Shown: positions 47,238 through 61,025 of the stretch, piece by piece
Numbering within the stretch: position 1 is the first letter of the stretch
Layout of the letters: each line of letters starts with the position of its first letter
Source of the DNA: Corallococcus sp. AS-1-12
GTDB taxonomy: Bacteria; Myxococcota; Myxococcia; Myxococcales; Myxococcaceae
DNA: 64,000 nt
Direction: 5' to 3'
Assembly: GCF_020036995.1 (NCBI RefSeq)
Contig: NZ_JAIQDD010000010.1
Span: forward strand, 161,433-225,432
Position numbers and translations under genes: made by a program
The notes under the pieces: model-generated
Databases searched by the model: none
The model's input: only the letters and a program-made list of their open reading frames with translations
What the model was told of the DNA's origin: nothing

Positions 47238-47376
47238 CAGCGCCCGCCTGTTCGCTCGTATCAGCAACAGGAGGGGGAGACGTGCGCTGCCCCGCCCCCT
47301 CCCTGACAACTGGTGCACGATGGGGGCCTGCCGGAGATTGCTCCGGTACGGTCACCCCACCGAAGACGAGCGCACC

Positions 47377-50145
47377 ATGGACGAGCAACGCCCCGCCAAG
47401 CCCCCGGCCCGGACGGACCCCTCCATCGACCTGCTCCACCAGCGGACCCGTCAGCCGCTGGAGGTCATCTTCTCCCCCCGCAGCGTCGCGGTGGTGGGGG
47501 CGAGCGAGCGGCCCGGCAGCGTGGGCCGCACCGTCCTCTGGAACCTCATCAGCAGCCCGTTCGGCGGCACCGTCTACCCGGTGAACCCGCAGCGGCCCAA
47601 CGTGCTCGGCATCAAGGCGTGGCCCTCCCTGCGCGCGCTGCCGGAGCCGGTGGACCTGGCCGTCATCGTCACCCCCGCGAAGTCCGTGCCGGCCATCATC
47701 CGCGAGTGCGCGGAGGTCGGCGTCAAGGGCGTCATCATCATCTCCGCGGGCTTCAAGGAGACGGGGCCGGAGGGCGCGAAGCTGGAGCAGGAGGTGCTGC
47801 ACATCGCGCAGGCCGCGAACCTGCGCATCATCGGGCCCAACTGCCTGGGCGTGATGCGCCCCACCAGCGGCTTCAACGCCACCTTCGCCAAGGGCATGGC
47901 CCGCCCCGGCAACGTGGCCTTCATCAGCCAGTCCGGCGCGCTGCTCACCTCCATCCTCGACTGGAGCCTGCGCGAGGCCGTGGGCTTCAGCGCCTTCGTC
48001 TCCGTGGGCTCCATGCTGGACGTGGGCTGGGGAGACCTCATCGACTTCCTCGCGGATGATCCGATGACGCGCTCCATCCTGCTGTACATGGAGTCCATCG
48101 GCGACGCGCGCGCCTTCCTGTCCGCCGCGCGCGAGGTGGCCCTCACCAAGCCCATCATCGTCATCAAGGCCGGCCGCACCGCGCAGGCCGCGCAGGCCGC
48201 CGCGTCCCACACCGGCACGCTCGCCGGCAGCGACGAGGTGCTCTCCGCCGCCTTCCGCCGCGCGGGCGTGCTGCGCGTGGACTCCATCGAGGACCTGTTC
48301 CACATGGCGGAGGTGCTGGCCCGCCAGCCCCGGCCCTCCGGCCGCAGGCTCACGCTGCTCACCAACGCGGGCGGCCCCGCGGTGCTCGCCACGGACGCGC
48401 TCGTGTCCGGCGGCGGGGAGCTGGCCGTGCTGTCCGACGACACCCGGAAGCAACTGGACGGCTTCCTGCCGCCGCCGTGGAGCCACGCCAACCCGGTGGA
48501 CATCCTGGGAGACGCGGACGCGGAGCGCTACGCGAAGGCGCTGGAGACCACCGGCGCGGACCCCAACAGCGACGGCCTGCTCGTCATCCTCACCCCGCAG
48601 GACATGACGGAGCCCACCCAGACGGCGGACCGCCTCAAGGGCTACGCGAAGCTGCCCGGCAAGCCCGTGCTCGCCAGTTGGATGGGGGGCTCCGAGGTCG
48701 CCGCGGGCGAGCGCATCCTCAACGACGCGGGCATCCCGACCTTCGGCTACCCGGACACCGCAGCCCGCGTCTTCAACTACATGTGGCGCTACTCGGACAA
48801 CATCGCCGGCCTCTATGAGACGCCCACGCTGGCGGAGGAGCCCACCGGCGGAGGCCGCGACGTCGCCCGCGCCCTGGTGGACGAGGCCCGCGCCTCCGGC
48901 CGCACCCTCCTGTCCGAGTACGAGTCCAAGCGCCTGCTGGCCGCCTACGGCATCCCCACCGTGGAGACGTGGCTCGCCACGACGGAGGACGAGGCGGTGG
49001 AGAAGGCCCGCGCGCTGGGCTTCCCCGTGGTGCTCAAGCTGCACTCGCTCACGGTGACGCACAAGACGGACGTGGGCGGCGTGCGGCTGGACCTGCGCGA
49101 CGAGGCCCAGGTGCGGGACGCGTACCGCGCCATCCGCGACGCGCTCGCGGAGCGGGGCCTCCAGGACGCGCTCCAGGGCGTCACCGTGCAGCCCATGGCG
49201 AAGCTGGACGGCTACGAGCTCATCCTGGGCAGCAGCCTGGACGCGCAGTTCGGGCCGGTGCTGCTCTTCGGCGCGGGCGGCACGCTGGTGGAGGTGATGC
49301 AGGACCGGGCCCTGGGCCTGCCGCCGCTCACCACCACGCTGGCGCGGCGGATGATGGAGCGCACGCGCATCCACCACGCGCTCAAGGGCGTGCGCGGCCG
49401 GGCCCCCGTGGACCTGGGCGCGCTGGAGCGGCTGATGGTGCGCTTCAGCCAACTGGTGGTGGAGCAGCCCCTCATCCGCGAGCTGGACATCAACCCGCTG
49501 CTCGTCTCCGGTGAGCGCATCATCGCGCTGGACGCGCGCGTGGTGCTGCACCCGCCGGACGTGCAGGCCGCGTCGCTGCCGAAGCTCGCCATCGAACCGT
49601 ACCCGCACCAGTACGCGAAGGTGCTCACGCTGAAGAACGGCGAGCAGCTCCTGGTGCGCCCCATCCGCCCGGAGGACGAGCCCGCCATGGGCCGCTTCCA
49701 CCAGGCCCTCTCCGAGCAGACCGTGTTCATGCGCTACGCGGGCCTGATGAAGCTCAGCCAGCGCGTGGCCCATGAGCGCCTGGCGCGCATCTGCTTCAAC
49801 GACTACGCGCGGGAGATGGCGCTCGTCGCGGAGCGGCCGTCCCCGGACGGGAAGGGCGGGGGAGAGATTCTGGCGGTGGGCCGGCTCACGCGCCTGCGCG
49901 GCACGAAGGACGCGGAGTTCGCCATCACCGTCAGCGACACGGCCCAGCGGCTGGGCCTGGGCACGGAGCTCTTGCGGCGGCTGGTGGACATCGGGAAGGA
50001 CTGGGGCCTGCGCCGCATCGTCGCGGACATCCTCACGCGCAACCGCGGCATGCAGGCCGTCAGCAAGAAGCTGGGGTTCACGCTCCTGGATCACGAGGAG
50101 CTGGCCCCGGACATGGTCAAGGCCGTGAAGGTGCTCAACGGCTGA
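47377..50145 (+). CDS. Pat/PatZ-like protein acetyltransferase: NDP-forming acyl-CoA synthetase (CoA-binding + ATP-grasp) fused to a C-terminal GNAT domain
   Basis: N-terminal [18 protein letters not shown] (CoA_binding). Ligase-CoA and ATP-grasp blocks. C-terminal GNAT ([38 protein letters not shown]). 922 aa from ATG 47377. Confidence 0.85.
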
Positions 50146-51899: not shown

Positions 51900-53540
51900 C
51901 TACAGGTCGATATCGTACTGCGAACAGTATTGTCGGACCCTTGGACGTTCCGTTGCCGGGACGCGGGCCCATTGCGCCCGCGCGTTCGCCAGGTCGTGCT
52001 GCTGGCAGTACACGCGCGTGAGCAGCGAGAACGACAGGCCGGTGATCTTCGTGCGCTGGCTGCGCCGGATGTGACGCAGCGCTTCCGACGTGTTGGACGC
52101 GTCCAGCGCCTTCTGTGCCGCCGCCAGGTCCTCGCGCACGCTGTCCGGCATGGACTCCGGGGTGCCGCGCGGCTTCGGCCTGGCCGTCACCGTGGACGGC
52201 TCCGCGGTGGGCTGCCGGGGCTCCTCCGGCTCCGTCGGCTGTGGCTGCTGGGGCTCCGGGTCCACGGGCGGCTTCGGATCCACCGGCTGCGCCACGACGG
52301 CGGCGGGCGGCGGGGTGACGGGCGCCGCGGGCCGGGCTTGCGGCGGGACCGGTGGATCCGCCACGACGGCGGCGGGCGGCGCCACACCCGGGCGCTTCCA
52401 GAAGAAGGCGACGGCGAACGCGATGATGACCGCCAGCCCCACGGCCACGGCCACCGGCCACTTCGGACGGGCGTGGGCCAGCGGCTGCGCGGGCAGGGAC
52501 GCCGTCTCGGGCCCGGAAGGGGCGTGGGGGCGCATGCCCACCGTGGGGATGTGCTCCTCGCGGTCCGGCGGACGCGGGGAGGACGGCGGGGCCGTGGGAG
52601 GGGTGGGGCGCGAGCGCTGCTCCGGCTTTGCCTCCGCGAGCGTCTGGAGCGGGCTGCCCGTCAGCTCCAGGATGAACGCGCCGACGTCCGGGTAGCGGTC
52701 CTCCGGCTTCTTCGCCATGGCGCGGGAGATGGCCGCCACCACGTGCGGCGGAGTCTGGGGCGCCAGCGTCAGGAGCGGTGGGGGCTCCAGGTGGACGATC
52801 TGGTAGATGAGCTCCGCGACGTTCTCGCCGGAGTAGGGCGGCCGGCCCGCGAGCATCTCGTAGACGATGCAGCCGAACGCGAAGAGGTCCGTGCGCGCGT
52901 CCACGTTGCTGTTGTGGCCCATGGCCTGCTCCGGGGCCATGTACTGCGGCGTGCCCATCAGCACGGAGTCCAGCGTCTGCACCGTGCGCGAGTCCACGAG
53001 CTTGGAGATGCCGAAGTCGAGCAGCTTCACGCGCTCGCCCACGACGCCGCCCGCCTCCGTGGGCACGAGGAACACGTTGCCCGGCTTCAGGTCGCGGTGC
53101 ACCACGCCCGCGCGGTGCGCCGCCTGCAACGCCGCGCCCATCTGCCGCGTGATGGAGAAGACCTCCTCCAGCGGCAACTGCTTCTGCTTGCGCAGCCGGC
53201 GCGACAGGCCCTCGCCGCGCAGGTACTCCATCACCATGAAGGGCGTGCCGTCCTCCAGGGTGTCGAAGTCCAGCACCTCCACGATGTTCGGGTGCCCCAG
53301 CCGCGAGGCGATCTCCGCCTCGCGCCGGAAGCGCACCGCCACCTCTTCCGACAGCGCCTCCGCGCCGTGCAGCACCTTGATGGCGACCTGCTTGCCCGGC
53401 AGGCGCAGGTGGCGCGCGAGGAACACCGCGCCCATCCCACCCTTGCCCAGCACGGTGCCAATCTCATACGTGGAGCGCAGGATCCGTCCCGTCGTCAACG
53501 GCTCGCTCTGCGCGGAGGTCGGTTCGGTTGGCTTTTGCAT
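51900..53540 (-). CDS. Serine/threonine protein kinase (Hanks-type) with one TM helix and a Pro-rich extracytoplasmic tail
   Basis: GKGGMGAVFLARH, VAIKVL, HRDLKPGNVFL, DFGISKL, GTPQYMAPE. TM WPVAVAVGLAVIIAFAVAFFW. Confidence 0.85.
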   Translation of the reverse strand: MQKPTEPTSAQSEPLTTGRILRSTYEIGTVLGKGGMGAVFLARHLRLPGKQVAIKVLHGAEALSEEVAVRFRREAEIASRLGHPNIVEVLDFDTLEDGTPFMVMEYLRGEGLSRRLRKQKQLPLEEVFSITRQMGAALQAAHRAGVVHRDLKPGNVFLVPTEAGGVVGERVKLLDFGISKLVDSRTVQTLDSVLMGTPQYMAPEQAMGHNSNVDARTDLFAFGCIVYEMLAGRPPYSGENVAELIYQIVHLEPPPLLTLAPQTPPHVVAAISRAMAKKPEDRYPDVGAFILELTGSPLQTLAEAKPEQRSRPTPPTAPPSSPRPPDREEHIPTVGMRPHAPSGPETASLPAQPLAHARPKWPVAVAVGLAVIIAFAVAFFWKRPGVAPPAAVVADPPVPPQARPAAPVTPPPAAVVAQPVDPKPPVDPEPQQPQPTEPEEPRQPTAEPSTVTARPKPRGTPESMPDSVREDLAAAQKALDASNTSEALRHIRRSQRTKITGLSFSLLTRVYCQQHDLANARAQWARVPATERPRVRQYCSQYDIDL

Positions 53541-53702: not shown

Positions 53703-54332
53703 CTACGGCGTGGTGGGCGGCAGCACGATGTTCGACTGGATGTCGCTCGCGGAGTTGATGTGCATCTGCACGGCCTGCCGCTCGGCGGTCGCCTCCTGCG
53801 CCAGGGCGGTGTTCTTGATCTGCGGCGACAGCAGGCTGTCCGCGAGGAAGGCGACGCGCGCGTGCGCGTTGAGCTGCGCGCTGATCAGCGCCAGATCGAG
53901 CCCGGTGCCGACGGGCGGAGCCTCCGGACTGGAGAGGATGCGCATCATCTCCTGGACCTCCGCCTGCAACTGGAGGCTCAGCGCGCTGTCCTCGGGCGTG
54001 ATGCCCTGGGCCGCGATGAGCGCGTCCAGGCGCTGCTTCACCGCGGTGTGCTCCGTCACCATCTGGTTGTTGAAGTCGCGCACGGCCTGCTCGGTGGCGA
54101 GCGGCGCGGCGTACTGGCCCAGCATCACCACGCCCTCGTTGGCCACCTGCAGGATGCGGGCGATCTGCGCGTCGTTGAGCGTCAGCACCACGCCCGCGTC
54201 GGTGCCCGAGTCCGGGGCCTGCTGCTGTGGCGCGTCCTGCGGCGTCGGCTCCTTCACTTCGCTCCCACACCCGTAGCCCAGCGCCAGCGCCCCCGCCAGC
54301 AGCGTCCCCATCCAGAATTTCGCTGTCCGCAT
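53703..54332 (-). CDS. DUF4142-family lipoprotein
   Basis: Start at the internal ATG (MRTAKFWMGTLLAGALALGYGCGS). LNDAQIARILQVANEGVVMLGQYA and ALISAQLNAHARVAFLADSLL blocks are typical of DUF4142. Confidence 0.6.
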   Translation of the reverse strand: MRTAKFWMGTLLAGALALGYGCGSEVKEPTPQDAPQQQAPDSGTDAGVVLTLNDAQIARILQVANEGVVMLGQYAAPLATEQAVRDFNNQMVTEHTAVKQRLDALIAAQGITPEDSALSLQLQAEVQEMMRILSSPEAPPVGTGLDLALISAQLNAHARVAFLADSLLSPQIKNTALAQEATAERQAVQMHINSASDIQSNIVLPPTTP

Positions 54333-54623
54333 GTCCAACCCCCGTGAATGTCGCTGGGGCAGGATGGGGAGGCCCTCCAGCCATGGCCATGCGCGCTTCA
54401 GCCGTTGCCAGTGTGCCCGTGAGCACGGACCGGGCAGGCAGGCCGTCAGGCGCGACCCGCCGGCCAGACCCACCAGGATGTTTCACGGGCATGTTTCAGC
54501 CCGCGTCATGACGGAGCAGGTTGGATCCAGAGCGGCGAGCAGGCAGTTCTCAGACATTGGAAAACGCGTCGCACGTCGCGCAACGTTGACAGTGAAACAC
54601 CGGATGGTGTCTCGTGTTTCCAG

Positions 54624-55706
54624 ATGGACGGTTCACGGCGCGTCACTGTTCTCTCCTTGCACCGGGGTTCCGCGAGCATCGTCCGCGCCCTGGTGCCCCA
54701 CTTCGATCTGCCGCCGGCGGAGCTCGCCGCGAGGCTGTTCCGCGCCCCCGCGGTGCTGGCGTCGGGCCTGCCGGAGGACCTCGCCCGGGGCCTGTCGGAG
54801 GTGCTGGGCAACGCGGGCCTGCGCGTGGTCGTGGAGCCGGATGACGCGCCCCTTCCTCCTCCCGCCGGGCAGACCTACGACGTGGCGCTGTACGTGCGTG
54901 ACGGCGGGCGCTTCCGCGAGGTCTGCGCGGAGCTGGCGGCCGTCCTGGGCTGTCCCCTGGCGGACGCCGCCTCGGCGCTCTGCGCCACGCCGCCCACGGT
55001 GGTCGGCTCCGTGTCCCAGGCCACGGTGGACGCGCTCCGGGAGCGCTTCGCCGCGCTGGGCGCGGAGGTGGACGCCAGCCATCCGCCCACCGCCCGCTAT
55101 GACGTCTTCGCCACGGAAACGGTCAGCCTCGCGACGGTCCGCTCGGTGCTGGAGGCGCAGGGCGTGACGCCGGGCGAGCCGCCGCTGGTGGCCCGGGACC
55201 TCTCGCACGAGCAGGCGGAGCGCGTGTGGCGGGAGCTGGGAGCGCGGGGTGGGGTGCGGTTGTTGGATCACGCCTTCCAGCGCTTCGACGTCAGCCTCCT
55301 GGAGGCCCCCGCCGACGCCGGCTTCCCGGAGCTGCTGGTGCGGGAGACGGGCATGCCCCCGGCGCTGGTGCCGAAGGTGCTCAAGCGGCTGCCGGTGGTG
55401 CTGCACACGGGGCTGTCGCGCGCGGACGTGGTGGCGCGCACCGCGCCCCTGGAGGCCGCGGGCGCGAAGCTGGCCGTGCAGCTCATCAACTTCCGCAGCT
55501 TCCGCCTGACGGTGGAGGACTCGAAGGACCCCGCCGTGGCCGCGGAGCTGCTGTCTTCGGGGCTGGGGCTGCAAGCCAACGAGGCGCGCACCGCGCTCTC
55601 CCGGCTGCCGCATACCTTCCAGGCCACGGTGGGGGACACGCGCGCGCGCTGGCTCGTCGCGGAGCTGCGCGCGCGGGGCACGCGGACGTCGCTGGTGTCC
55701 CAGTGA
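54624..55706 (+). CDS. Repeat protein made of ~5 modules resembling the ribosomal L7/L12 C-terminal domain; first gene of the long plus-strand operon
   Basis: Modules such as LADAASALCATPPTVVGSVSQATVDALRERFAALGAEVDAS and LHTGLSRADVVARTAPLEAAGAKLAVQLINF. These echo L7/L12-CTD (…[34 protein letters not shown]). 360 aa. Confidence 0.45.
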   Translation: MDGSRRVTVLSLHRGSASIVRALVPHFDLPPAELAARLFRAPAVLASGLPEDLARGLSEVLGNAGLRVVVEPDDAPLPPPAGQTYDVALYVRDGGRFREVCAELAAVLGCPLADAASALCATPPTVVGSVSQATVDALRERFAALGAEVDASHPPTARYDVFATETVSLATVRSVLEAQGVTPGEPPLVARDLSHEQAERVWRELGARGGVRLLDHAFQRFDVSLLEAPADAGFPELLVRETGMPPALVPKVLKRLPVVLHTGLSRADVVARTAPLEAAGAKLAVQLINFRSFRLTVEDSKDPAVAAELLSSGLGLQANEARTALSRLPHTFQATVGDTRARWLVAELRARGTRTSLVSQ

Positions 55707-56251
55707 GCTCGCTCGCGCTGCACTTCCGCGTGGCGGAGCAGGGCAAGGTGTTCGCGCTGGCTGGCCGGCATGACGAGGCGCTGCGCCACTACCGGGAGGC
55801 GCTGCGGCTGGCCGCGCTCCAGGGCGGCTCCGACGTCTGCCAGCGCCACTATGCGTGGTGCGTGCTCGAGTCGCTGGAGCGCTCGGGGGCCCACGAGGCC
55901 GTCATCTCCTTCTGCCTGCGCGTGGAGGCCCACTACCAGCAGCAGCCTCCCACGAGCGACCTGGCCCGTCAGGACCTGGCCGCGCACCACGAGCGGCACG
56001 GCCTGGCGCTGGCGAAGCTGGGGCGCCTGGCCGAGGCGCGCACGCGGCTGGAGTCCGCGGTGGCGCTGGCCGGGGCCGGGCGGCTCCCGCTGTCGGAGCG
56101 GGTGCTGGGCTGGGCGCGCACCGGACTGCACGTGGACGCGCGCCGCATCACGCTGGAGCAGGACCGTCACGCCTACTGGGTCGTCCGTCCCGACACCGTT
56201 CGTCCCGACATCGCCGTCGCACTTCCTCCCGTCGCCGCACCCTTGGGGTAG
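55703..56251 (+). CDS. Hypothetical TPR-like helical protein
   Basis: GTG start overlapping the upstream stop (GTGA). ALRHYREALRLAALQGG... 182 aa. Confidence 0.4.
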   Translation: MSSLALHFRVAEQGKVFALAGRHDEALRHYREALRLAALQGGSDVCQRHYAWCVLESLERSGAHEAVISFCLRVEAHYQQQPPTSDLARQDLAAHHERHGLALAKLGRLAEARTRLESAVALAGAGRLPLSERVLGWARTGLHVDARRITLEQDRHAYWVVRPDTVRPDIAVALPPVAAPLG

Positions 56252-56254
56252 ACC

Positions 56255-58351
56255 ATGCCGAAAGCAGGGAAGATCCTCGCGGATCTCAACATCTCCGACT
56301 TCATCCGGGACATGGGGCTCGCCATCGCCGAGGCCCAGACCAAGCTGGACACCAACAGCGTGGATCAGACGCTGCGCATGGGGCAGACCGTCCTGCCGGG
56401 CATGACGCAGAACCTGCTGGCCCTGGGGTTGCGGCCGGCCTTCTACCACTTCCAGTACGCCGACCTGGAGGTGAACCTCAACGTCTACTACTCGACCACC
56501 ATCGACGTGGGCGCCAACTTCAACTACGACAACGAGAACGAGTCGAGTGAGTACAGCCTCGAGACGTCCTCCGCCAGCGGCAGCGCCACCCTCACGGTGC
56601 AGGACGGCGAGGGCATTCCCCCCTACGCCTGTCTGGCGTTGGTGGCCAACGCGCCGGGCCACCTCACGGTGGGCACCACCAGCTACGCGCTGGACGGCGG
56701 CGTGGGCCCCAACAGCAGCGGCCTGCCCGTCACGCGCCAGGACACGCTGTGGGAGACGGCGCAGGAGCTGCTCGTGGCCCTGCGCAACAACTCCGTCTGG
56801 ACCAACCAGGCCGCGGGGGACCTGCAGGGCGTCTTCATGGACTGGGAGATGCAGTCGGGCGTCACCGCCAGCACCAACCGCCCGGACCTCTACGCCATCA
56901 ACCGCTCGGTCATCACCGTGCGGACCTCGCCGCAGGCGGCGCCCGGCGACAACCTGGTCATCGCGCGGCTGGGCAGCGTGACGCCCGCGCCCGCGCTGCT
57001 GCTGCCGGCCACCAACGGCACGCGCTACACCAGCACCGCGGCGACGGTGGGCGCGGCGCTGGCGGACATCGGGCAGCAGGTGGACCCGGCCGCCTTCTTC
57101 GTCGTCTCCGGCGCTGACTGCAACCGGGCCATCTACTTCGACACCGACGTCCACGACGTGCCCACCACCACCTACGGCACGGACCGCGAGCCCTCCGCCA
57201 TCCTCGACGCGGTGGCGGCGCTGCTGGCGGAGCACCCGTCCGCCTCGCTGGACCTGGAGGGCTGGGCGGATCAGCGCACGCCGCCGGCCCCCGGCTACAA
57301 CCAGCGCCTGTCGCAGCGGCGCGCGGACTTCGTCCTGCGGGCGCTGACGTCGCGGGGCGTGGCGGCCAGCAGGCTCAAGGCCCGGGGCATGGGCGCGACG
57401 GTCAGCTTCAGCAGCTCCGACCTGGCGGCCAACCGGCGCGTCGTCTTCCAGTTCTCCGGCGTGCCCGCGTCGCTGGTGGCCCGCACCGGCGCGGCCACGG
57501 CCGCCTTCGACCCCACGGGGACGGACCGGGAGGCCCGCATCGTGCCGCGCACTCGCGCCGCGGCGAACGCGCCCACCACGGCCGTCGTCACCTTCCGCGG
57601 CACGGACTTCACCCAGGGCACCGCCTCCCAGGGCACCACCTTCGCGGTGGGCGCCACCGCGGAGTCCACCGCCGCCAACCTGGCCCGCGCCATCCGCGAC
57701 GCCAACGCCAACACCGCCTTCGGCGCCTTCGCGCGCGGGGACCGCGTCTACCTGTACGGCACCGGTGACCACGCCCTGTTCACCCTGTTCGCGCGCACGC
57801 CCACCGCGCCGGCCCTGTCCGCGGCGGGCTCCATCCGCGTGGCCCGCCGCTTCGGTGACGGCCGCCCGCCGGCCTCGCCCCAGCCGCGCGACACCGTCGT
57901 CATCGACAACGTGCAGTTGGTGGCCGTGGAGGCAGGCGTCGCCCCGCAGCCGGGGCAGTTCACGCTGGGGGTGACGGCCGCGGACACGGCGCGCAACCTG
58001 GCCGCCGCCATCACGGCGGGCTCCAGCTCCGGCGTGCTGGCCGCGGGCCTCCAGGCCCAGTCCGCGGGCAACATCGTCACCGTCTCCGGCCCCTCCGGCA
58101 CCATGCTGGGCACCAGCAACCCCGCCGCCTTCCTGCTGTCGGCCAACCGCATCGCCGGCAAGCCGTCCGCGGACCGCGAGGAGAGCTCCGAGCGCGAGCT
58201 GCGCGCCCTCAACGTGGATGCGCACGCTTCGGTGAAGTACGAGATGAGCGTGTCCGGCAGCTCGACCATCAAGGCCCGCCTGGTGGCGGTGCCCGCGCCG
58301 CCCCAGTTCCTCCAGGCCATCGGCGACTACCTCGAACGCTGGTACCCGTAA
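56255..58351 (+). CDS. Member 1 of an unrecognised paralogous family, split by a ~540-aa insertion containing an OmpA-like peptidoglycan-binding domain
   Basis: N-terminal family half (ILADLNISDFIRDMGLAIAEAQTKLD...RPAFYHFQYADLEVNLNVYY). Insertion carries LDLEGWADQRTPPAPGYNQRLSQRRADFVLRALTSRGVAASRLKARGMGA (OmpA_C-like). C-terminal family half (SVKYEMSVSGSSTIKARLVAVPAPPQF). Confidence 0.55.
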   Translation: MPKAGKILADLNISDFIRDMGLAIAEAQTKLDTNSVDQTLRMGQTVLPGMTQNLLALGLRPAFYHFQYADLEVNLNVYYSTTIDVGANFNYDNENESSEYSLETSSASGSATLTVQDGEGIPPYACLALVANAPGHLTVGTTSYALDGGVGPNSSGLPVTRQDTLWETAQELLVALRNNSVWTNQAAGDLQGVFMDWEMQSGVTASTNRPDLYAINRSVITVRTSPQAAPGDNLVIARLGSVTPAPALLLPATNGTRYTSTAATVGAALADIGQQVDPAAFFVVSGADCNRAIYFDTDVHDVPTTTYGTDREPSAILDAVAALLAEHPSASLDLEGWADQRTPPAPGYNQRLSQRRADFVLRALTSRGVAASRLKARGMGATVSFSSSDLAANRRVVFQFSGVPASLVARTGAATAAFDPTGTDREARIVPRTRAAANAPTTAVVTFRGTDFTQGTASQGTTFAVGATAESTAANLARAIRDANANTAFGAFARGDRVYLYGTGDHALFTLFARTPTAPALSAAGSIRVARRFGDGRPPASPQPRDTVVIDNVQLVAVEAGVAPQPGQFTLGVTAADTARNLAAAITAGSSSGVLAAGLQAQSAGNIVTVSGPSGTMLGTSNPAAFLLSANRIAGKPSADREESSERELRALNVDAHASVKYEMSVSGSSTIKARLVAVPAPPQFLQAIGDYLERWYP

Positions 58352-58360
58352 GGAGTCCCC

Positions 58361-58864
58361 ATGCCCGGAAACAACACCACGCAGGGCCAGCGCGCGATGA
58401 TGACGGTGCTGGACGCGCCGCTGCCCGAGCTCATCGAGCGGCTCGGGCGCGCGGTGGCGGACGCGCAGCACGCGCTGGACGTCAACTCGCTCGACATCGC
58501 CAAGCGCATGTCCGAGCGCACCGTGGACCTGGGCGACGGGCAGTTGTGGAGCCTGCTCGCGCTCGGCTTCACGCCCACGTTCTACGCCTTCGCCGAGGCC
58601 ACGCTCGAGGCGAAGCTCACCTTCACCATCCGCGAGTCCACGGAGTTCTCCGTGGGCGGCGGCGCGACGGGCGGCATGGCCGGCATCTTCTCCGTGACGG
58701 TCAACGCCGAGTACAGCCGCAAGTACGGCTTCGAGGTGCAGGGCGCCAGCTCCATCGCCGCGCGGCTGGTGTCGCTGCCTCCGCCCGCGCGCCTGCACCA
58801 GTTGCTCAACGAGATCGCCGCCCAGCCGCCGCTCCCCGCGGCCTCCACCAATACCTCCGCCTGA
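58361..58864 (+). CDS. Family member 2 (167 aa)
   Basis: RBS AGGAG. LIERLGRAVADAQHALD...FTPTFYAFAEATLEAKLTF...YSRKYGFEVQGASSIAARLVSLPPP. Confidence 0.55.
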   Translation: MPGNNTTQGQRAMMTVLDAPLPELIERLGRAVADAQHALDVNSLDIAKRMSERTVDLGDGQLWSLLALGFTPTFYAFAEATLEAKLTFTIRESTEFSVGGGATGGMAGIFSVTVNAEYSRKYGFEVQGASSIAARLVSLPPPARLHQLLNEIAAQPPLPAASTNTSA

Positions 58865-58886: not shown

Positions 58887-59459
58887 ATGCCCAACGTCGG
58901 TCAGGAACTGCTGAACGTCCCCATGGGGGACATGATTCGTGAGATGGCGACCGCCATCGCGGAGGCGCAGCTCGAGCTGGACAAGAGCGGGATGCTCGTC
59001 GCGGAGATGATGAGCGGCGAGGCGCTGCTGCGGGACGCCGACGGGAACATCCAGCTCGACGGCTCCGGCAAGCCCATCCGGGTGGACACCAAGGTGTCCT
59101 TCGCGGGCACGCCCTCGTCCATGATGGAGCTGGGCTTCGCGCCCAACTTCTACCAGTTCGTGGACACCATCATCGAGGTGAAGATCGCCATCAAGATGAC
59201 GGAGAGCACGGAGAGCAAGGTGGCGACGCAGAGCACCTCGCGGACGGCCGGCGGGCTGCGCCTCTTCAAGCGCGGCGGCGCGCCCCAGGCCGTGGTGACG
59301 ACCGTGGACGCCAGCTACACGCGCAAGTACGACTACAGCGTGGAGGGCTCCAGCCTGCTGCGCACCAAGCTGGTGCCGGTGCCTCCGCCGGCCCTCTTCG
59401 AGGAGCGGGTGCGCGCGCTCATCGCGTCCAGGGCCGGCACCACGCCCACCACGAAGTAG
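58887..59459 (+). CDS. Family member 3 (190 aa)
   Basis: MIREMATAIAEAQLELD...FAPNFYQFVDTIIEVKIAIKM...YTRKYDYSVEGSSLLRTKLVPVPPP. Confidence 0.55.
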   Translation: MPNVGQELLNVPMGDMIREMATAIAEAQLELDKSGMLVAEMMSGEALLRDADGNIQLDGSGKPIRVDTKVSFAGTPSSMMELGFAPNFYQFVDTIIEVKIAIKMTESTESKVATQSTSRTAGGLRLFKRGGAPQAVVTTVDASYTRKYDYSVEGSSLLRTKLVPVPPPALFEERVRALIASRAGTTPTTK

Positions 59460-60086: not shown

Positions 60087-61025
60087 ATGTCACACGTCCG
60101 TTGGGAAGACCTGCTGGAGGAGGACGCCGCCGGGGCCTCCGACGCCGCTGGCGCGTCCGCTCCTGCTCCGGGAGCGGACACGCCCGTGCCGTCGCTGGAG
60201 CAGGTGGCCGCCAGCGACCCGGAGCTGGCGGCGCTGCTGAAGGAGCGCCGGCAGCTCGAAGACACGATGAAGGCGCTGAGCGGCGTGCAGGAGGCGCCCG
60301 TGGACGAGCGGCTGGCGAAGCAGTTCCCCGTCGTCCAGCACACGCCGGAGTCGCGCATCGCGGAGCGCAAGCAGCACGAGCGGGACACCGCGCGGCGGCT
60401 GCTGGAGCAGAAGCTGTACGCCCGGCGCCGGACGGAGGCGGAGGAGGCCGAGCGGGTGGAGGAGCTGCGCCGCGAGCGCCTGCAGGCGGGGAAGGCGGCC
60501 CGGCGTCAGGCGCAGAAGCAGCAGACGCTGCGCCAGCAGTGGGCGCGCAAGGCGCGTGAGCGCGCGAAGCTGGCCACGCGGCTGGCGGAGCGCGCCCTGG
60601 AGTCCCAGGGCCGGGGCCGCATGAAGCTGGGGGAGCTGGGGTCCGCGACCCGGCGGTTGGCGGACGCGGCGGAGGAGGCGCGCTCGGTGGCGCGCAGGCC
60701 CCTCGCGCTGGAGAAGGGCCAGACGCTGCCCTCGCTCGGGCAGGTGGGACGGGCCCTGGGGGGGCGCGGCGGGCTCACGATAGGGAAGGTGGAGAAGGGG
60801 GTGGCGGTGGCGCGCGAGCTTCGGGGGATGGATCCCCGCTCGCTGGACACCGAGGCCCTGATGATGCGCGGACTGGCGATGGCCGGCATGGACATGGAGT
60901 CCATGGAGCAGCAGATGGACATGGAGATGGAGCGCGCCGGCATGGGCATGGACGACATGGACGCGCGCGACACGGCACGTGACGCGCGGCGGGAACGCGG
61001 GCGCCAGGGAGCGCGGGATGAGTGA
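60087..61025 (+). CDS. Highly charged coiled-coil protein with Met-rich C-terminal tail
   Basis: ERRQLEDTMKAL...RRRTEAEEAERVEELRRERLQAGKAARRQAQKQQTLRQQWARKARERAKLATRLAERAL. C-terminus MMRGLAMAGMDMESMEQQMDMEMERAGMGMDDMD. No TM helix or signal peptide. Confidence 0.45.
   Translation: MSHVRWEDLLEEDAAGASDAAGASAPAPGADTPVPSLEQVAASDPELAALLKERRQLEDTMKALSGVQEAPVDERLAKQFPVVQHTPESRIAERKQHERDTARRLLEQKLYARRRTEAEEAERVEELRRERLQAGKAARRQAQKQQTLRQQWARKARERAKLATRLAERALESQGRGRMKLGELGSATRRLADAAEEARSVARRPLALEKGQTLPSLGQVGRALGGRGGLTIGKVEKGVAVARELRGMDPRSLDTEALMMRGLAMAGMDMESMEQQMDMEMERAGMGMDDMDARDTARDARRERGRQGARDE

Follow-up and report, generated by a model that had tools for sequence, protein, structure and literature searches.

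Why should an OmpA-like domain lie in the middle of a small domain whose uninterrupted paralogs are encoded by the neighboring genes? The question is raised by a 698-aa protein, here called subunit A, encoded in a 64,000-nucleotide stretch of DNA from Corallococcus sp. AS-1-12 (Myxococcota; contig NZ_JAIQDD010000010.1, positions 161,433 to 225,432; ~70% GC), which we refer to as the window. Public annotation describes A as "OmpA family protein" and gives nothing else. A first-pass annotation, made from the letters of the window, had proposed a split architecture, in which the two ends of the protein match the small proteins encoded next to it. A is the third gene of a conserved, syntenic ten-gene operon, directly before genes B, C, and D. 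Each operon encodes five proteins that are paralogs of one another, namely A to D and H. We address first whether the two ends of A belong to one small domain, then what the insert is and how old it is, and finally what the proteins of the operon might build.

The two ends of subunit A

The open reading frame (ORF) of A starts with ATG, and no 5' extension is possible because the stop codon of the preceding gene is at 56251, three bases before (all coordinates are in Table 1). BLASTP of A against the small proteins of the next three ORFs (167, 190, and 196 aa) bears out the proposed split, with significant matches at both ends to all three proteins: residues ~1-85 (E = 9e-12, 2e-8, and 2e-7) and residues 651-691 (E = 1e-6, 2e-6, and 1e-5). 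Between these two segments, the same comparison gave nothing significant. We also made hidden Markov models (HMMs) separately for the N half and the C half of the small domain, and both matched the 698-aa A of the C. coralloides locus (L006), with E-values of 2e-27 (aa 2-94) and 3e-17 (aa 651-696). Moreover, in an alignment of 116 sequences, MAFFT placed all 102 short homologs on both ends of A, across the gap, with ~90-95 residues of each on aa 1-100 and ~45 on aa 641-698. The N terminus of A is homologous to its paralogs from about residue 4 onward. Thirteen orthologous clusters of A from Corallococcus, Archangium, and relatives, 686-698 aa long, have the same architecture.

Residues 1-97 of A give a helix and a first strand (β1), and residues 648-698 give a second strand (β2) and a closing helix. 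In the N half, the helix is followed by the motif LxLGxxPxFY and an amphipathic strand, and in the C half, an amphipathic strand ending in VPxP is followed by a helix. The signature positions are extremely well conserved across the superfamily: G58, P61, F63, and Y64 are kept in 664-665 of 665 sequences, and column statistics show P680 and P682 to be invariant.

Do the two halves complete one fold, as the first-pass annotation had proposed to ask by structure prediction? AlphaFold2, run on A with the 116 sequences, predicted helix 13-44, strand 62-92, strand 651-680, and helix 683-696, with a predicted local distance difference test (pLDDT) score of ~80 near the base of the hairpin and <50 toward its tip and in the linkers. 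As an independent check of the strand pairing, we used mean-field direct-coupling analysis (DCA) on 665 non-identical sequences of the superfamily (effective number, Meff, 329). The three strongest couplings were 69-674, 68-675, and 66-676. Fourteen of the top 40 pairs lie on an antiparallel ladder (i+j = 743±2) that joins aa 63-91 with aa 653-682, against a chance expectation of 0.6 (hypergeometric p = 5e-16), and the profile along the anti-diagonals has a sharp peak at 743. Along each strand, hydrophobic columns strictly alternate with charged ones, and this pattern is in register with the ladder. The hydrophobic face comprises positions 71, 73, 75, 77, 79, 85, 87, and 89 of β1 and 654, 656, 658, 662, 664, 666, and 672 of β2; the charged face comprises E72, K74, and E82, and D655, K661, E667, R673, and K675. 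The helix appears to pack on the hairpin, since residues 4-26 couple to residues 77-81 and 663-672.

The AlphaFold2 model and the coevolution signal thus strongly support that the two halves of A are the two strands of one long amphipathic β-hairpin. With the strands pairing antiparallel, the small domain of A is intact, and the insert sits at the distal tip of the hairpin.

The insert and the long and short forms of A

The insert is ~550 aa long, close to the ~540 aa first estimated, and its site in A corresponds to a variable-length, Ser/Thr-rich loop in the small paralogs. Its first part, aa ~124-300, is β-rich at moderate confidence. The OmpA-like domain that had been recognized by eye in the insert is matched by Pfam OmpA (PF00691) at aa 314-393 (E = 4.6e-11; 43.4 bits versus a cut-off of 27.2), and the domain has the OmpA C-terminal-like fold. 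NCBIfam gave OmpA-type models only, all far under their equivalog cut-offs. The segment GWADQ...YNQRLSQRRAD of A aligns with YiaD, PorE, and Pal and contains the motif with the diaminopimelate-contacting Asp and Arg (GxxD ... NxxLSxxRA). Across the long forms of A (alignment A4), the conservation of D339, N349, L352, and R356 is complete or ≥90%. The peptidoglycan-binding Asp and Arg are conserved, and we predict from them that the domain binds peptidoglycan.

The insert had also been described as carrying Thr/Ala-rich low-complexity segments. This holds in part: some of this sequence is a genuine duplicated module of ~90-100 aa. Residues 440-530 and 530-640 resemble each other with a Smith-Waterman z-score of 5.3, and AlphaFold2 predicts one helix in each copy (469-483 and 575-592). 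Pfam has no significant match for the module (Flagellin_IN, E = 3; Phage_nozzle, E = 0.45). We considered Flagellin_IN motifs (PF07196) as an identity for these post-OmpA repeats and rejected it, the match reaching 8.5 bits versus a cut-off of 22.7.

That A has an insertion in an otherwise intact small domain is corroborated by insert-free orthologs at the same operon position in other phyla. In the Acidobacteriota locus and in locus L005, the A position is occupied by proteins of 203 and 215 aa that align to both ends of A and have no insert; the A of Nitrincola has 601 aa and bears OmpA. The domain-insertion variant is not, as might have been supposed, a one-off. We searched 1.84 billion cluster representatives with full-length A using phmmer, and of the 147 representatives examined, 99 contain both halves, separated by 286-609 aa (median 456). 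The long form is thus present in at least 99 clusters at 50% identity. Pfam OmpA was found in 76 of the 77 long-form homologs scanned. A profile of family A finds 268 proteins, and the best 120 of these are all 110-298 aa long and have no Pfam domain. Among 68 genomes with complete A-B-C-D runs, A is long in 41 (with OmpA in 40 of these) and short (~200 aa) in 27.

We reconstructed a neighbor-joining tree for the 80 best loci from the N and C halves only. A single branch parts long from short A (Fitch count 1), which suggests that the insert was gained or lost once, long ago, and that whole operons then spread across phyla. The long A is an old, clade-defining, and widespread form. It provides a clean and ancient case of an OmpA domain set into a β-hairpin at its tip, not fused end-on, and it reveals a site at which the host fold accepts cargo. 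The existence of both a long and a short A is also a natural experiment on the role of the tether that we propose below. In Pleionea sediminis, the A protein (L035:7743-9425) has an insert of ~420 aa in which neither Pfam nor the family HMM finds OmpA; this insert is either degenerate or different.

The operon and its distribution

The operon encodes, in order, a protein with repeats like the C-terminal domain (CTD) of ribosomal L12, a TPR protein, A, B, C, D, a coiled coil, F, G, and H. At its core are the five paralogs, each built as a helix, a long amphipathic β-hairpin, and a short helix at the C terminus. The gaps between its genes are tight, or the genes overlap. This gene order is common to the loci of Corallococcus, an Acidobacteriota metagenome-assembled genome (MAG), Nitrincola schmidtii, and another MAG, and in an all-against-all BLAST across loci, the best match of each window gene was its positional counterpart. 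Across the same four loci, gene 1 has ~360-390 aa and gene 2 ~185-195 aa; gene 1 holds the first place in all phyla examined. Gene 1 has no sequence match in the PDB, and a PDB sequence search with genes 1 and 2 returned a generic TPR motif only. A precedes B-C-D in every complete locus (68 loci with the full run, plus L001, L002, L004, and L005). The operon encodes no ATPase, and scans for promoters and terminators found no more of them than in shuffled controls.

Table 1. Features of the operon and of subunit A, in window coordinates unless a locus number (L) precedes them.
Feature	Position	Strand	Basis
Gene 1, 360 aa, repeats resembling the ribosomal L7/L12 C-terminal domain	54624..55706	+	PF00542 E = 1.4e-7; positional orthologs in Acidobacteriota, Nitrincola, L005
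Gene 2, 182 aa, TPR-like	55703..56251	+	faint TPR matches; positional orthologs with 39-45% identity; consensus TPR at aa 13-38
Subunit A, 698 aa, long form: small helix-hairpin domain with a ~550-aa insert between its halves	56255..58351	+	ORF, orthologs, split homology
Small-domain N half of A, aa 1-97: amphipathic helix 13-44, invariant G58/P61/F63/Y64, predicted strand β1 62-92	56255..56545	+	BLASTP, AlphaFold2, column conservation, alternating hydrophobicity
Insert at predicted hairpin tip of A, aa 98-647, ~550 aa	56546..58195	+	absent from short homologs; flanked by the two HMM halves
OmpA-like domain, predicted to bind peptidoglycan, aa ~290-401, conserved D339/N349/L352/R356	57122..57457	+	Pfam match at aa 314-393
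Two tandem copies of an α/β module, ~90-100 aa each, aa ~440-530 and ~531-640	57572..58174	+	internal similarity, predicted helices
Small-domain C half of A, aa 648-698: predicted strand β2 651-680, invariant P680/P682, C-terminal helix 683-696	58196..58351	+	BLASTP, AlphaFold2, coevolution
Paralog B, 167 aa, uninterrupted small domain	58361..58864	+	
Paralog C, 190 aa, most conserved member, ~55% identity across phyla	58887..59459	+	
Paralog D, 196 aa	59478..60068	+	
Gene E, 312 aa, charged, probably coiled coil	60087..61025	+	
Gene F, 221-234 aa, start uncertain: N-terminal helix-strand motif and weak Big_1-like immunoglobulin (Ig) domain	60979..61683	+	
Gene G, 243 aa: Big_1-like domain and PASTA	61680..62411	+	PASTA E = 1.8e-7
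Paralog H, 222 aa: small domain and C-terminal PASTA	62415..63083	+	PASTA E = 1.4e-7; both HMM halves match; orthologs
Gene I, 144 aa: weak Trypco2-like N terminus and weak PASTA	63103..63537	+	PF19631 E = 1.2e-3, PASTA E = 8e-4, both under Pfam cut-offs
Hydrolases downstream of the operon in other genomes	L004:11843-12706; L013:14988-18476; L035:15888-16825; L042:7770-9347; L050:9243-10715; L054:7424-10387		

Several loci depart from this organization. In the MAG at L005, E and F are fused into one protein of 634 aa (L005:11302-13206), which suggests that E and F interact. In two MAGs labeled Chloroflexia (L018 and L032), 8 and 10 ORFs match the small-domain HMMs versus the usual five, so that the paralog set appears to be expanded there. 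A further locus (L074:13707-15560) encodes an extra small-domain paralog with a C-terminal Laminin_G_3 domain, a concanavalin A (ConA)-like lectin fold (E = 1.6e-28), which adds a glycan-binding module to the repertoire of the family. In gene I, the Trypco2 match covers aa 11-55 (19.5 bits versus a cut-off of 24.2) and the PASTA match is C-terminal; this gene is the only sequence-level link from the operon to a characterized β-barrel former. Upstream in the window are an ADP-forming acyl-CoA synthetase/GNAT fusion (47320-50145, forward strand), and a Ser/Thr protein kinase and a DUF4142 protein (51900-53540 and 53703-54473, both on the reverse strand). These neighbors are probably unrelated to the operon, because they are not found beside it in other genera. 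After the operon comes a DEAD-box helicase.

A scan with one genome per species found paralog C in 180 species, including Myxococcota, Alpha- and Gammaproteobacteria, Bacteroidota, Acidobacteriota, Gemmatimonadota, and Opitutales, and the A-B-C-D...H order is retained wherever the contig is long enough. Its homologs form >1,600 clusters at 90% identity. Members from Myxococcota, Acidobacteriota, and Gammaproteobacteria share ~50-57% identity, 46 positions do not vary in a set of 30 diverse sequences, and the protein is annotated only as hypothetical; the window copy is 100% identical to that of C. coralloides KYC2213. Pfam, NCBIfam, PHROGs, and PADLOC contain nothing that matches B, C, D, or H, and for A they give OmpA only. 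A PDB sequence search with a profile of the C family gave no match at E <= 10, Foldseek against BFVD returned OmpA matches only, and we found no description of the operon in the literature. We considered a phage origin and rejected it, there being no tblastn match for paralog C in 50,697 phage genomes and none in 2.9 million IMG/VR contigs. A plasmid origin was rejected likewise, with one distant plasmid match only, in Sphaerotilus.

What the operon may build, and comparison with known systems

The accessory domains that accompany the hairpin proteins are all wall- or glycan-binding, of a normally extracytoplasmic type: OmpA in A, PASTA (over the Pfam cut-off in G and H, under it in I), Big_1-like Ig domains in F and G, and LamG elsewhere. 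Moreover, peptidoglycan hydrolases of three unrelated families, none with a signal peptide, are encoded directly downstream of the operon in six of 30 other genomes. These are Amidase_2, with or without SH3_3, in Nitrincola, Opitutales, and Balneolales; Peptidase_M74 with PG_binding_1 in Oceanobacter; and GH108 with PG_binding_3 in Pleionea, accompanied by a holin with three transmembrane (TM) segments of the type found in gene transfer agents (GTA_holin_3TM). In the window, no hydrolase or lysis gene follows the operon, and most other loci likewise have no lysis genes.

We lean toward the view that A ties a hetero-oligomeric assembly, a β-sheet or a β-barrel, to peptidoglycan. The five paralogs (A to D and H) would pair edge-to-edge through their hairpins and give an extended β-sheet or a closed β-barrel, with one face hydrophobic and partly covered by the N-terminal helices, and the other face charged. 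The hydrophobic stripe, of ~19 residues per strand, is in our judgment longer than one helix covers, so that oligomerization or a hydrophobic partner would be needed. Non-covalent attachment of the assembly to peptidoglycan would be the task of the OmpA module of A and of the PASTA modules of G, H, and I; in operons with a short A, the PASTA modules alone would do the tethering. Adjoining hydrolases, where present, may open or remodel the wall. The first-pass annotation had already suggested an anchoring subunit of a larger assembly. This remains plausible: the retained OmpA Asp and Arg and the four further paralogs in a tight operon speak for it, and the missing signal peptide or membrane anchor speaks against it.

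Several observations weigh against this proposal. The most serious concerns export. No signal peptide, lipobox, or TM helix was detected in any operon protein of four phylogenetically distant loci. The highest 19-residue Kyte-Doolittle mean of A is 1.47, and A has none of the features by which OmpA, Pal, or MotB are delivered, namely a signal peptide, a lipobox, an N-terminal β-barrel, or a TM anchor. The periplasmic placement of the OmpA domain is thus not accounted for by any export signal in A or its partners. The structural evidence also has its limits. The mean pLDDT of the AlphaFold2 monomer is 62, with aa 81-123 and 599-660 below 50. The DCA ladder could in principle be intermolecular, as DCA alone cannot separate pairing within a chain from pairing between chains; we looked by DCA for a second, inter-subunit ladder and detected none. 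The small domain has no structural relative in the libraries searched. Finally, that the subunits assemble together is something we infer.

Solving the conflict between wall-binding domains and the missing export signals would reveal an unrecognized route to the periplasm, a structure released by lysis, or a wall-sensing pore former. We tentatively entertain a bolder proposal that is possible, if well short of probable: the operon would encode a previously unrecognized nanostructure associated with peptidoglycan, a hetero-oligomeric β-barrel or β-sheet of five paralogous helix-hairpin proteins present in at least 180 species of several bacterial phyla, that reaches or crosses the wall although its subunits have no signal of the Sec, Tat, or lipoprotein kind. 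The tip of the hairpin would then serve for display in general, and the OmpA insert of A would tie the structure to the wall.

Alternatively, the operon could encode a membrane-active β-barrel like those of Pepco (Trypco1/2), pre-assembled in the cytoplasm with a hydrophobic exterior and a charged lumen, that would make a membrane permeable as a toxin or as an effector of defense or lysis; OmpA and PASTA would then serve as localizers or sensors, not as a static anchor. Pepco proteins, of ~117 aa, form 9-10-mer β-barrels resistant to sodium dodecyl sulfate (SDS), with a basal amphipathic helix, strands that are hydrophobic outside and charged inside, and a Pro/charge-rich tail; the barrels become pores after proteolysis and belong to antiphage systems (Evans et al., bioRxiv 10.1101/2025.11.14.688446). 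The strictly two-faced hairpin of the operon proteins follows the same design, their lack of secretion signals agrees with cytoplasmic assembly, gene I has its weak Trypco2 match (E = 1.2e-3), and genes of the holin or endolysin type adjoin some operons. However, none of A, B, C, D, and H matches Trypco2 at E <= 0.1, nor does any of 30 C-family members at E <= 10, in keeping with the absence of Pfam matches other than OmpA noted above. Homology to Pepco was equally unsupported by hhalign with family profiles against SsPepco (sequence from the preprint supplement), which gave probabilities of 0.2% and 0.08%, in what is a weak comparison with a single Pepco sequence. The operon has no protease, STAND, or other sensor gene and no PADLOC match, and no peptidase family was found in the operons of the window, L001, L002, L004, and L005. 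Five obligatory paralogs with ~55% identity across phyla resemble a conserved machine, not a fast-evolving defense effector, and a folded insert of 550 aa at the membrane-penetrating tip would block insertion. We consider this alternative unlikely.

A second alternative is a particle or fiber assembled in the cytoplasm, similar to a tailocin or a gene transfer agent and freed by holin-endolysin lysis, that would use its OmpA, PASTA, Ig-like, and LamG modules to attach to envelope glycans on debris or on other cells. It would reconcile subunits without export signals with binding domains of an extracellular type, and it could account for the signal-less Amidase_2, M74, or GH108 enzymes and the one GTA_holin_3TM encoded directly downstream in six of the 30 genomes. 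Nevertheless, paralog C is absent from the phage genomes and IMG/VR contigs searched, B, C, D, and H have no PHROG match, the BFVD matches are confined to OmpA, lysis genes are missing from the window and most loci, and no capsid, tube, sheath, or terminase family was detected; such a particle is improbable. The idea that A is a small paralog joined to an ordinary OmpA lipoprotein by mis-assembly or mis-calling, or that its termini resemble the paralogs by chance, finds some comfort in the bare public annotation of A, but it is scarcely credible given the recurrence of the architecture in the 13 orthologous clusters, the 99 or more clusters at 50% identity, and 41 of 68 genomes, the E-values of both half HMMs, the coevolution of the halves, and the lack of a signal peptide or lipobox in A.

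With A as the probable tether of a hairpin assembly, three known systems offer themselves for comparison. Pepco and the operon proteins are both small and signal-less, with an N-terminal amphipathic helix, two-faced strands, and a Pro-rich C-terminal region. They differ in that neither sequence nor profile comparison detects a similarity of A-D and H to Pepco, and in that the operon has no partner protease or sensor. Furthermore, the operon has five conserved paralogs versus a single gene, strands of ~30 residues, a tip that is variable or bears an insert, and attached peptidoglycan-binding domains. We therefore take Pepco as a working model, by analogy, for how the hairpins might oligomerize, and not as a family placement.

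The axial proteins of the flagellin and hook type share an architectural likeness with the operon proteins, in that conserved N and C termini form the core, the variable middle takes large insertions, and several paralogous subunits without Sec signals are encoded together. The likeness is not one of homology: in place of a coiled coil, the core of the operon proteins is a helix with a β-hairpin, the operon has no linked type III export apparatus, and it is present in non-flagellated Myxococcota.

The third comparison is with the OmpA-like (PF00691) anchors, such as Pal, YiaD, MotB/PomB, TssL/TagL, PorE, the OmpA-family subunit of the Dot/Icm type IV secretion system (T4SS), and ZorB. These have a terminal OmpA domain and are brought to the periplasm by a signal peptide, a lipobox, a β-barrel, or a TM helix, whereas A has no export signal, and its OmpA domain is nested in the β-hairpin of an unrelated host domain that is not in Pfam. 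The insert is a true OmpA-like member in its profile match, its fold, and its motif, and A as a whole is in none of the anchor families. The OmpA anchor is thus of a known kind, in a new topology and a new host; the host family and its operon, which match nothing curated, may possibly, though we say so with reserve, be categorically new.

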